Source: Camelus ferus (lineage: Eukaryota). Taken from it: 64,000 bases of DNA. Position 1 is the first letter of the stretch, and every line of letters begins with the position of its first letter. The position numbers were made by a program, and so were the translations under genes. This document shows positions 54,138 to 56,819 of this stretch, piece after piece. The stretch is taken from positions 39,868,001 to 39,932,000 of the forward strand of contig NC_045696.1 of NCBI RefSeq assembly GCF_009834535.1. The letters run 5' to 3'. Below the pieces are notes generated by a model that saw nothing but the letters and a program-made list of their open reading frames with translations, was not told the origin of the DNA and made no database searches.

Positions 54138-56184
54138 CTTGGAGGAAAAACAGCTGGAAGTTTGCCTTCTATCTCATTTTTACTATAGCCCATGAATGGA
54201 ATTGCTTTCCAAAGTGATTAAATCTGCCATATCTGGGGAAGATAGCTGGCCAACAGATGTCAGAGAATGACTTTTCTAATCATTGACAATTCTTTTATTG
54301 ATGTAGCCAGCAGCGACCAGGTTGGAGAAACACTGTCTATTCATGATTTAAATGCATGCTGATATCTCATTAGGCCCAGACGTTCATATTCCCAGATACA
54401 ATTTTGACACCAGAGCCCAAATCATTATTCTGGGAGACTGAATGTCTCAAAGTCAGCCCTTAACTATTTCTACTCCGTTGGGAAAATGTCCATCTCCCTT
54501 CTCTCCTACCTCAAATGCTACAGATTACAAAGTGAACAGTTTAAAAACAAACAGAATGAAAACGTATTTGGAGCAGTGGGATTTTAGGCCTTCCTTAGCA
54601 AGACTCAAAAGGTACAAGAATTCCAGTCATATGAAGCCCTCTCCACAGCTGAACTATGGTGGTAATGACAGACAAATAACTTCAGAAGAACTTAATTGGA
54701 AAAGATACAGAGAATAATCCAAGAAATAACAATAAGAATGATTAATGGGATGAAGATTAAATCAGATAAAAAGGGTTATGGAGTTAAAGTTTTTTGGCTC
54801 CAGAAAAACAAAATCCCAGGGCTGATTTGCTAGTTGATTATTAATAATTGGCAGAGTTTGATTTGGAGTTCTTAAATAAATTGTTACAAAGAATTTTTCC
54901 AGCCTCAATGATTTTAGGCAAAGCAAGGGTCATTCAAATAGAGCTATACCTAAGCTCTGCTTCAAGAATATAAAAATCTACTTTAAACAAGATTTTGGTG
55001 CATTGTCTTATACTGAAAACCAGATGCCAGTAAATGGACTTATTTCAGTGATTAAAAGTTAAGCTAGTGATTCTAAGTTAAGATGTCCTAGATCTTAAGG
55101 GAGATCGATTATACACTGAGAGACCAAGAGAGTTTAAAAGGACACATATTCCTAAAATATGTTCAACCAGCACCATAATGTAAAAATAATGTTTTATGTT
55201 CTTTAATACTTTTGATTTATTTCCATGATTTTAACTTCTTAGTGAAAGAGTGTTGATTGAACCATTTGAATAGATCATGAAATAGTGAGTAATTACAACC
55301 TTATAGGCAAATCAATAACATTTATACAATAGGAGTTATGCACTGAAAACTAAAAATGCATAATTTTTAGTAGACTGCTTTTGCCCTAATAAAAATTAAA
55401 CCTTCTTTCAGACTGTAGTGCTTTTTATTCAGATTACCTAATATATTGAATGTCAAATTTGGTAGCTTTTTAGCCACTAAGATGTTAATATCTGAGGGCA
55501 TTTTTGAGCAGTATTAAAGTCCAAATCATTTCATTGTAAATATCTATTTAGGACAATGATCACAATTAGGCAGGCTCTCTGGTAGCCTCAAATGCTAGTT
55601 ATGCATTGCTGCTGGAGATGTGACCTACAAAATGCAAAGTAGTTTCTCAAGTACTCTCACTTTAAATTATGTCCCCAATCAAAATCAGAAGAAAATTGAC
55701 ATGAGAGCCTTTTGATTTTCTTTTGGACTTGCAACAGCAATACATGTTTATTGTTGGATTTTAAAAGTTATAGATAAGCAAGGAAATGGGAAAAAAAAAC
55801 TCAAAATGTGATCACTCAAAGATAAGCGTGGTTAGTATTTCTGTTTGCTTCCTCTTTTCAGAGAAGTGGTGTGTGTGTGTTTACATTTTGTTGTGTAATG
55901 TTTTTTCTCACAAAACTATTACGAACTTTTTTTCATGCTACTAAACAAGTGTTGATTTCAAAATAAGCATGCTTTGAAGACATGATTATGAGAAGAATAC
56001 TTTCAGAGCAAGCCATTTGGATTCAGAATGAATGATGAATATTACAAGGCAACTACTGAAACCTTTCTAGGGAAGTTTCCTTCAGAGTATTTTGGTTACA
56101 TAATCATTTAAGTGACTTCACCCAATGTTAATGAGTTAGTTGTAGGAGACATATAACTCCACAGGTTAAAAGTAGCTTGATTTG

Positions 56185-56255
56185 GCAGTGATGCATGAAT
56201 TTCTTCACCTGGAATCGCTGTGAAGCATGAAATCGAGCTTTTTAACCCTGAGTCC
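56185..56255 (+). ncRNA. SNORD36: Retroposed box C/D snoRNA U36 (SNORD36B-like) copy
   Basis: C box GTGATGC at 56188-56194 and D box CTGA at 56248-56251. Guide cgagctttttaac (56234-56246) is complementary to conserved 18S GUUAAAAAGCUCG. Second guide tgaatttcttcac (56196-56208), complementary to 28S GUGAAGAAAUUCA, precedes a D'-like CTGG. Lies 83 nt upstream of an RPL7A 3' splice site; U36 snoRNAs are known RPL7A intron residents. Confidence 0.9.
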
Positions 56256-56790
56256 ATAGCTGGGCCCACAGTAGAACTGCTTTTGTGGACAGCAGCTCCC
56301 ACCCCATCTGGTGCAAATGGGTTGTGTGTTCTAGGGGTTAATACTGTCACCACCTTGGTGGAGAACAAGAAGGCTCAGCTGGTGGTGATTGCACATGATG
56401 TGGACCCGCATTGAGCTCGTTGTCTTCCTGCCTGCCCTGTGTCAGAAGATGGGGGTTCCCTACTGCATCACCAAGGGGAAGGCCAGGCTGGGGCGCCTGG
56501 TCCACAGAAAGACCTGCACCACCGTTGCCTTCACGCAGGTGAACTTGGAAGACAAAGGAGCCCTGGCCAAGCTGGTGGAAGCCATCAGGACCAATTACAA
56601 AGACAGATATGACGAGATCCACTGTCACTGGGGAGGCAGTATCCTGGTTCCAAAATCAGTGGTTCGCACTGTCAAGCTGGAAAAGGCAAAGGCCAAAGAA
56701 CTGGCCACCAAACTGGGCTAAGTGTACCCTACCAAATTTTCTGTACATAAAAGTAATAAAAATTCTTCAGCCAAAAAAAAAAAAAAAAAA
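56185..56790 (+). pseudogene. RPL7A: Partially processed RPL7A retrocopy: snoRNA + 3' part of host intron + spliced downstream exons + 3' UTR + poly(A)
   Basis: 56335-56721 translates [25 protein letters not shown] / [11 protein letters not shown]...AKELATKLG* (eL8/L7a C-terminal half), with no introns and a +1 frameshift near 56408. AATAAA at 56755-56760, A22 run from 56773. Perfect 17-bp TSD aaaagtagcttgatttg at 56168-56184 and 56791-56807, at a tt|aaaa L1 endonuclease site. Confidence 0.97.
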
Positions 56791-56819
56791 AAAAGTAGCT
56801 TGATTTGCTAGAAATTGTA

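Follow-up and report, generated by a model that had tools for sequence, protein, structure and literature searches.

A SNORD36-headed, intron-retaining retrocopy of RPL7A in Camelus ferus, probably made from a partly processed host-gene RNA

Retroposed copies of small nucleolar RNAs (snoRNAs) were divided into three types by Weber (2006, PLoS Genet 2:e205, PMC1687206). The main text of that survey deals with H/ACA snoRNAs as well as scaRNAs (small Cajal body-specific RNAs), and every snoRNA retroposon named in it is one of these. Its Type-3 examples are U70/RPL10, U17/U17HG and U69/Rpl39. For this type it proposes endonucleolytic cleavage of the pre-mRNA and exonucleolytic degradation to the snoRNA's 5' end, with a 3' part that is spliced and polyadenylated. 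Among the human U70/RPL10 Type-3 copies it counts 18 of 30 with the entire snoRNA and 12 of 30 with part of it, and later spread by segmental duplication is noted there for U109. The case of SNORA24/SNHG8, again H/ACA, was added by Zhang et al. (2010, PMC2832892). For C/D box snoRNAs, Bergeron et al. (2021, PMC8178906) describe copies as arising mainly by recombination within the host gene and less often by capture by L1. Here we analyse a candidate Type-3 element headed by a C/D box snoRNA. It lies at positions 56168-56807 of a 64,000-nt stretch of the Camelus ferus genome (assembly GCF_009834535.1, NC_045696.1, 39,868,001-39,932,000, forward strand). This whole stretch is called the window, and its own numbering is used below.

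RNAs of a corresponding architecture are known from living cells. They are the snoRNA-capped, polyadenylated (SPA) long noncoding RNAs (lncRNAs). As listed in a review (PMC11028025), they include RNAs capped by SNORD107 and SNORD109A (Wu et al. 2016) and a SNORD86-ended RNA of NOP56 (Lykke-Andersen et al. 2018). According to the same review, the small nucleolar ribonucleoprotein (snoRNP) blocks XRN2 in SPA1 and SPA2, and the cytoplasmic SNORD86/NOP56 SPA is made through nonsense-mediated decay (NMD).

The insert in the window is, with high probability, an old and dead retrocopy of an unusual RPL7A RNA, made by L1. Between target-site duplications (TSDs) it consists of a full-length SNORD36, 77 nt of intron, RPL7A exons 5-8, the signal AATAAA and poly(A); all these features are on the plus strand. 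The original prediction, made from the letters of the window, had described perfect 17-bp TSDs. Two copies of AAAAGTAGCTTGATTTG, each of 17 nt and 100% identical to each other, indeed occupy 56168-56184 and 56791-56807. A repeat scan of 56000-57000 gave only two families of direct repeats of at least 11 nt, of which this is one, and by our own arithmetic the chance expectation of such a repeat is about 3e-5 (approximately 5e5 position pairs x 4^-17). The 5' repeat begins at the nick of a TT/AAAA sequence (56166-56171), which we take to be the consensus target of the L1 endonuclease.

The snoRNA occupies 56183-56257 and is matched by the Rfam SNORD36 model RF00049 with 65.9 bits against a gathering score of 30, over model positions 1-77 of 77. 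It is assigned to the family by this score, by its full length and by the presence of both box C (GUGAUGC, 56188-56194) and box D (CUGA, 56248-56251). Its first two nucleotides overlap the TSD. The former box D' (56209-56212) now reads CUGG in place of the parental CUGA, owing to a substitution at 56212. The retained 3' part of RPL7A intron 4 follows at 56258-56334 and ends in the acceptor AG. Here the original prediction was right about the terminal gtgtgttctAG at 56334; its length of 83 nt is reached by counting from where box D ends, and from the 3' end of the Rfam match the length is 77 nt.

The exonic part runs from the splice acceptor to the poly(A) tail. Exon 5 lies at 56335-56415, its frame being shifted by one inserted nucleotide at 56408. 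Exon 6 (56416-56546) is joined to it exactly, and exon 7 (56547-56616) has an equally exact junction. Exon 8 (56617-56773) comprises the end of the coding sequence, with the stop codon TAA at 56719-56721, and the 3' untranslated region up to the parental cleavage site CAGCCA. The polyadenylation signal AATAAA at 56755-56760 is that of the host gene. The tail has 18 A before the 3' TSD (56773-56790), and the A-run as a whole has 22 (56773-56794). At the DNA level the 3' end consists of the host AATAAA and CA site followed by the A-run, which would be consistent with canonical cleavage and polyadenylation of the RNA. An open reading frame at 56389-56718 matches the Pfam domain Ribosomal_L7Ae (E 1.8e-10). 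The element is dead DNA, its coding part being frameshifted and its D' box lost. With 75 nt of snoRNA and 77 nt of intron 4 in it, it is not an ordinary processed pseudogene.

The insert was used to search the same assembly (2.09 Gb, 2043 contigs). The parental locus, L021 on contig C4, matches it in four separate blocks. Reconstruction from GT-AG boundaries yields a gene of eight exons with a 266-aa product. This product differs in two residues from that of an intronless copy, L002, and for the 266-aa product of L002 the PDB chains named 60S ribosomal protein L7a / eL8 give E 5.8e-172. On these similarities the exonic parent of the insert is identified as the RPL7A (eL8) gene. Five C/D box snoRNAs were recognised in it with Rfam, two of the SNORD24 family and three SNORD36, residing in introns 1, 2, 4, 5 and 6. 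The SNORD24-family members are those of introns 1 and 2 (L021 positions 3533-3607, 77.3 bits, and 4297-4364, 64 bits).

The snoRNA of the insert derives from the first of the three SNORD36 copies, that of intron 4 (L021 5091-5165, C4:73165091-73165165), with which it shares 68 of 75 positions; this assignment comes from the parental alignment, as Rfam resolves the family level only. Positions 56183-56415 are colinear with L021 5091-5321, that is, with the snoRNA, the rest of intron 4 and exon 5 (BLAST identity 93.6% over 233 columns). The insert therefore aligns to the intron directly upstream of this exon, as anticipated by the original prediction. The intron part alone (56258-56334 against L021 5166-5241) has 72 matches, 4 mismatches and one 1-nt insertion. 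The parental introns 5, 6 and 7 (325, 288 and 194 nt) are absent from the copy and all three junctions are exact, so that the expected intron-free run through the stop codon to AATAAA and poly(A) is confirmed by comparison with a parent that does carry the introns. Downstream of CAGCCA the parent continues with GTGTTTGG. Hence the A-run is untemplated, and the tail was probably added to the RNA at the normal cleavage site of the gene.

For an overall comparison, the coordinates of the parental snoRNA, the rest of intron 4 and exons 5-8 were used to assemble a template. The copy differs from it by 34 substitutions and two single-base insertions against 555 matches, with every junction exact. 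CpG transitions account for 11 of the 34 substitutions, a share expected of a decaying pseudogene. By sequence comparison the copy is a neutrally decaying pseudogene, with a divergence of about 6% from its parent. With neutral rates typical of mammals this suggests, as a rough estimate, that it is some tens of millions of years old.

At box C, the intron-4 SNORD36 of the present parent has UGGUGC; UGAUG is found there in the retrocopy, in both paralogues and in the Rfam consensus. The parental sequence scores 59.3 bits compared to 65.9 for its own fossil. This parental snoRNA may be decaying in the species, or the difference may be a variant of the assembly or of the individual.

The position of the 5' end is the central observation. 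The first base outside the TSD, 56185, is 3 nt upstream of box C, as the original prediction had it. However, the 5' TSD ends in TG (56183-56184), and these two bases are shared with the parent (...TGGCAGTG). The RNA-derived part thus starts at 56183, 56184 or 56185, or 5, 4 or 3 nt before box C, corresponding to positions 1-3 of the SNORD36 model. Mature human C/D snoRNAs are reported by Kishore et al. (2013, PMC4053766) to have sharply defined 5' ends 4-5 nt before box C. Within the 2-nt ambiguity, and with the mature end taken from human data, the start of the copy coincides with the mature 5' end expected for this snoRNA.

This anatomy makes it very probable that the template was no mRNA, being instead a partly processed RPL7A RNA whose 5' end coincided with the mature end of the intron-4 SNORD36. 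The other retrocopies of the gene were collected by searching the genome with the whole 3.5-kb parental RPL7A gene, introns included, and comparing all loci with the parent. Such searches score the best candidates only, and all counts of events given below are lower bounds. Among the matches scored, intron-bearing RPL7A retrocopies are of three kinds only: the copy in the window, a family of loci L004-L008, and L009.

The copy found at L004-L007 (C31:19987253-19990612, C8:75793059-75796418, C4:75914060-75917419 and C9:80536276-80539635) is headed by the SNORD36 of intron 5. The start, TTGCAATGATG, corresponds to Rfam position 1 of that snoRNA and lies 5 nt before its box C; the copy keeps the rest of intron 5, has exons 6-8 spliced, and is placed between A-rich duplications GATATCTC. 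The flanks of the four loci are 96-99% identical over 3.3 kb, and a genome search found them at full length at these loci only, which speaks against four independent retropositions. An older paralogue of the same event, L008 (C2019:99569-102951), is 83% identical and has its 5' part replaced. We therefore count L004-L008 as one event spread to four or five loci by segmental duplication of at least 3.3 kb. A genome-wide search with the Rfam SNORD36 model gave seven matches above cut-off, two of them parental, and all five others are the window copy and the four duplicated loci.

The third kind, L009 (C5:88423944-88427348, minus strand), is about 77% identical to the parent. Downstream of the second SNORD24-family snoRNA it retains the intron, and homology to the parent sets in at parental position 4326, which is 3 nt ahead of the internal C' box of that snoRNA. 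The homologous part directly follows a 13-nt duplication whose two copies are 92% identical.

The remaining RPL7A copies are of two sorts. At least three (L002, L003, L010) are ordinary intronless multi-exon copies, which stand beside the three snoRNA-limited RPL7A events found. L016, L017 and L020 contain only the last 33-100 nt of the gene. The intronless L002 (positions 1088-1888, contig C37, approximately 35947717-35948517) shares 99% identity with the exons of the parent, and its 266-aa frame is intact, with the changes V19G and V135I; its sequence suggests that it may be a very recent retrocopy, or a retrogene that is possibly expressed.

A second host gene was encountered through cross-matches, as the genome-wide search with the SNORD24 model recognised another snoRNA at two loci. 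The first of them (L061/L063, C21:9093930-9099412) contains, in this order, SNORD74, SNORD75, the cross-matched snoRNA, SNORD77, SNORD44, SNORD78, SNORD79, a snoRNA of the snR60/Z15 family, SNORD47 and SNORD81. We take this to be the arrangement of GAS5. The GAS5-like gene thus hosts ten C/D box snoRNAs, of which the SNORD76-like one was detected through the SNORD24 model only (48.6-51.5 bits).

The other locus (L062/L064, C11:16358395-16361803) is a retrocopy of the first. Its homology to the first locus sets in 5 nt before box C of SNORD75 (Rfam position 1) and extends through the rest of the SNORD75 intron, the next exon and the whole of the following snoRNA-bearing intron. Its 3' part consists of eight short exons joined as spliced, followed by AATAAA and an A-run, and it is flanked by 15-nt TSDs with 87% identity. 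When the GAS5-like gene was used as the query, the five matches listed included two more multi-exon retrocopies. L065 (C3:46580649-46583794) starts in the internal C' box region of the SNORD76-like snoRNA, approximately 0-2 nt before C'. This start comes directly after GAAGAATAT, which occurs exactly twice in the locus, the second time after the A-tail (two occurrences in a pattern search against 0.04 expected). L066 (C18:4748274-4751386) starts at box D of the same snoRNA. Thus all multi-exon GAS5-like copies among the matches listed (3/3) retain an intron and start at or inside a snoRNA.

The locus L067 (C19:15517031-15520089) holds a copy of SNORD44 alone with 16 A, between GAAATGAACATGG duplications (a 13-nt TSD). 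It is a Type-1 retroposon of a C/D box snoRNA. The idea that retroposition of C/D box snoRNAs occurs only by borrowing the poly(A) tail of the host is ruled out by this copy, which has an A-tail of its own.

Taken together, six independent intron-retaining events were found in two host genes, three in RPL7A, the window copy included, and three in the GAS5-like gene. Of these six, three begin at a mature snoRNA 5' end (SNORD36 of intron 4, SNORD36 of intron 5, SNORD75), the other three begin inside a snoRNA (L009, L065, L066), and none of those found extends upstream of it into intron or exon. The original prediction had offered scattered 5' ends in other intron-retaining copies as grounds for its rejection; those observed respect the snoRNA boundary. 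The pattern is that expected, judging from these sequences, if the 5' end of the template is the snoRNA's 5' end and reverse transcription is occasionally incomplete, and it is unlike random truncation of longer mRNAs. As a side observation, two diverged copies, L009 and L065, begin just before the internal C' box instead of box C. These starts may be due to chance, or may mark a further site, in the C'/D' half of the snoRNP, at which an exonuclease stopped.

The alternative that survives best is ordinary 5' truncation. A capped, full-length RPL7A mRNA retaining intron 4 would have been the template, and the L1 reverse transcriptase would have stopped by chance at the first bases of the snoRNA. 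Truncated retrocopies do exist in this genome (L016, L017, L020), and the three intron-retaining copies that end inside a snoRNA show that incomplete copying happens. The substrate, too, is plausible, since Lykke-Andersen et al. (2014, PMC4233243) report, for host genes of multiple snoRNAs, numerous isoforms that retain introns or are sensitive to NMD. However, a uniformly distributed stop would reach one of the three compatible positions in only about 0.3% of cases on an intron-4-retaining mRNA of approximately 1073 nt, and in about 1.5% even if it fell within the 197-nt intron 4 alone (own arithmetic). Moreover, two further independent events, those of the intron-5 SNORD36 and SNORD75, hit the same kind of position, and none of the six intron-retaining events found reaches upstream of the snoRNA. 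A structural block does not help, because the reverse transcriptase meets the snoRNA from its 3' side and would be expected to stop before or inside it, not exactly at its 5' end. We consider this explanation improbable.

One could also imagine that transcription began inside intron 4, at the snoRNA or just ahead of it, and gave a capped RNA. This would call for start sites 3-5 nt before box C in three introns of two genes, and the mature 5' end of C/D box snoRNAs is described as set by the distance from box C through trimming (PMC4053766); internal initiation is thus very unlikely. Least likely of all is a jump of the L1 reverse transcriptase from spliced RPL7A mRNA to another RNA that contained the snoRNA: chimeric retrocopies of small RNAs and mRNAs, such as those of U6, are a known class, but here the alignment to the parent runs through snoRNA, intron and exon 5 in unbroken colinearity, the other five events are equally colinear, and each jump would have to land at the exact colinear base.

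Several points weigh against a template trimmed to the snoRNP. What is proposed about the RNA, from its existence to its abundance and 5' chemistry, is read from fossil DNA. The 2-nt microhomology at the 5' junction fixes the end only to within 3 nt, and the Rfam model and human data stand in for the mature SNORD36 ends of this species. Internal starts in three of the six events imply that reverse transcription was incomplete or that the RNA ends varied; the snoRNA boundary is therefore a limit and not a fixed point. The TSD of L009 is degraded. So is that of L066, which is weakly supported, 2 of 200 shuffles having reached an equal number of matches; the short TSDs of L065 and L066 were absent from the output of the repeat scan, that of L065 being supported by the pattern search. 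Finally, as only the best candidates were scored, intron-retaining copies with other 5' ends may have been missed, especially old or short ones, and these could change the picture.

The claim of the original prediction that the template was not an mRNA, being an RNA trimmed to the U36 snoRNP, is nevertheless supported by the anatomy, the colinearity and the recurrence of snoRNA-limited ends at other loci. The course of events could have been as follows. An RPL7A transcript retaining intron 4 would be cut or decapped upstream of the snoRNA, and a 5'-to-3' exonuclease would trim it until stopped by the assembled C/D snoRNP. The rest of intron 4 would stay unspliced, introns 5-7 would be removed, and the 3' end would be cleaved and polyadenylated at the normal site. 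The ORF2p protein of L1 would then prime on the poly(A) tail at the TT/AAAA nick and copy the RNA to its 5' end. Joining of this end through the 2-nt microhomology would create the 17-bp TSD, and the copy would afterwards decay as neutral DNA. L1 as the agent, the block by the snoRNP and an origin of the template in the germ line may be regarded as the likely elements of this scheme. At the time of copying, box C had the UGAUG of the family, so that the snoRNA could plausibly assemble a snoRNP.

The nuclease may have been XRN1 acting after NMD, or nuclear XRN2. If intron 4 is retained, a stop codon arises at L021 5062-5064; it lies 26 nt ahead of the snoRNA and has three exon junctions downstream of it. 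If intron 5 is retained, a stop codon arises 107 nt ahead of the snoRNA of that intron. The geometry in intron 4 is such that an NMD route may be possible, with cleavage near the stop codon and subsequent trimming by XRN1; it is compatible with NMD and is no proof of it. The nuclear route, endonucleolytic cleavage followed by XRN2, may apply equally well. The known isoforms of multi-snoRNA host genes, mentioned above, make an intron-retaining substrate plausible for trimming as well. That the RNA came from a regulated circuit of ribosomal protein intron retention and decay, as the original prediction also suggested, may be the case as pure conjecture.

A broader generalization can be put forward only tentatively, and we think it rather less probable than its opposite. 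RPL7A and the GAS5-like host might routinely produce polyadenylated, intron-retaining RNAs ended by C/D snoRNPs in the germ line, in sufficient abundance or accessibility to serve as L1 templates about as often as mRNA. The 5' ends of the retrocopies would then be footprints of exonuclease stops, the two starts at C' reflecting a second stop, and the RNAs themselves would perhaps be outputs of a regulated circuit of intron retention and NMD.

Pfam analysis of all 92 open reading frames of at least 75 aa in the window recognised only L1 fragments and the RPL7A piece, and no host-gene exon near the insert. The L1 fragments, derived from ORF1 and reverse transcriptase, lie at 908-1159 (-), 14314-14604 (-) and 62382-62876 (+). 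Two matches to tRNA models, at 9515-9586 (+) and 63267-63338 (+) with 40.1 and 46.6 bits, are possibly tRNA-derived short interspersed elements. An Rfam match to the Epstein-Barr virus stable intronic sequence RNA (EBV sisRNA) at 54094-54169 was rejected as chance, having 21.7 bits against a gathering score of 58 and lying on a CA repeat.

The value of the copy is that of a record: RPL7A would at some time have made RNAs that ended at an intronic C/D box snoRNA and were otherwise spliced and polyadenylated. At the RNA level, the review cited above (PMC11028025) gives this architecture for few loci, namely SPA1, SPA2 and the NOP56/SNORD86 SPA, and at the DNA level it is known from the survey of H/ACA snoRNAs and scaRNAs (PMC1687206). 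Such fossils could provide a cheap list, across genomes, of the host genes that make snoRNA-ended poly(A)+ RNAs.

Compared with the closest relatives at the DNA level, the insert has, by its sequence, each feature by which the main text of Weber (2006) defines Type 3. It shares with them the start at the mature snoRNA end (56183-56185 here, that end being taken from human data), the entire intron downstream of the snoRNA as far as the 3' splice site, the processed 3' exons (5-8, exactly joined where the parent has introns), an A-run of 18-22 after the cleavage site specified by the host signal, and TSDs, here perfect and of 17 bp. The proposed mechanism is the same, and truncated starts inside the snoRNA as well as spread by segmental duplication are common to both. 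Thus both the class and the mechanism were already in print, and the original prediction was correct in not calling the class new. The difference is in the heads, which here are of the C/D box type (SNORD36, SNORD24-type, SNORD75 and SNORD76-like) and in Weber's main text H/ACA snoRNAs or scaRNAs. RPL7A and U36 are absent from that main text, where the only 'U36' string is part of 'U3616', and a search of full-text literature, with most subscription journals outside its scope, gave no paper naming a SNORD36/RPL7A retroposon. What is new relative to that main text is the C/D box head, and with it the five further independent intron-retaining events in the same genome; the class itself has been known since 2006.

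Type-1 snoRNA retroposons, such as the SNORD44 copy described above, obey the same rule at the 5' end, but stop a few bases past the snoRNA and contain neither intron nor exons. The ordinary processed pseudogenes of RPL7A (L002, L003, L010) have the same L1 hallmarks and the same 3' end as the insert. However, they contain upstream exons and no intron, whereas the insert has the snoRNA and 77 nt of intron and no upstream exon. Set beside the view of Bergeron et al. (2021, PMC8178906), as given there, that C/D copies are less often captured by L1, the tally for the present genome is at least six independent Type-3 events headed by C/D snoRNAs, along with one of Type 1.

At the RNA level, the predicted template would share with the SPA lncRNAs (as reviewed in PMC11028025) a 5' end formed by a C/D snoRNP that blocks a 5'-to-3' exonuclease, and a polyadenylated 3' end. 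The SPAs of the Prader-Willi syndrome (PWS) region differ in arising, according to the review, from read-through past an upstream poly(A) site, not from intron retention. The NOP56 SPA is closer, since it comes from an alternatively processed host transcript cleaved in the course of NMD, and the position of the stop codon in intron 4 of RPL7A would allow the same. The SPA lncRNAs have been demonstrated in cells, whereas the RPL7A case is known here from its DNA copy.

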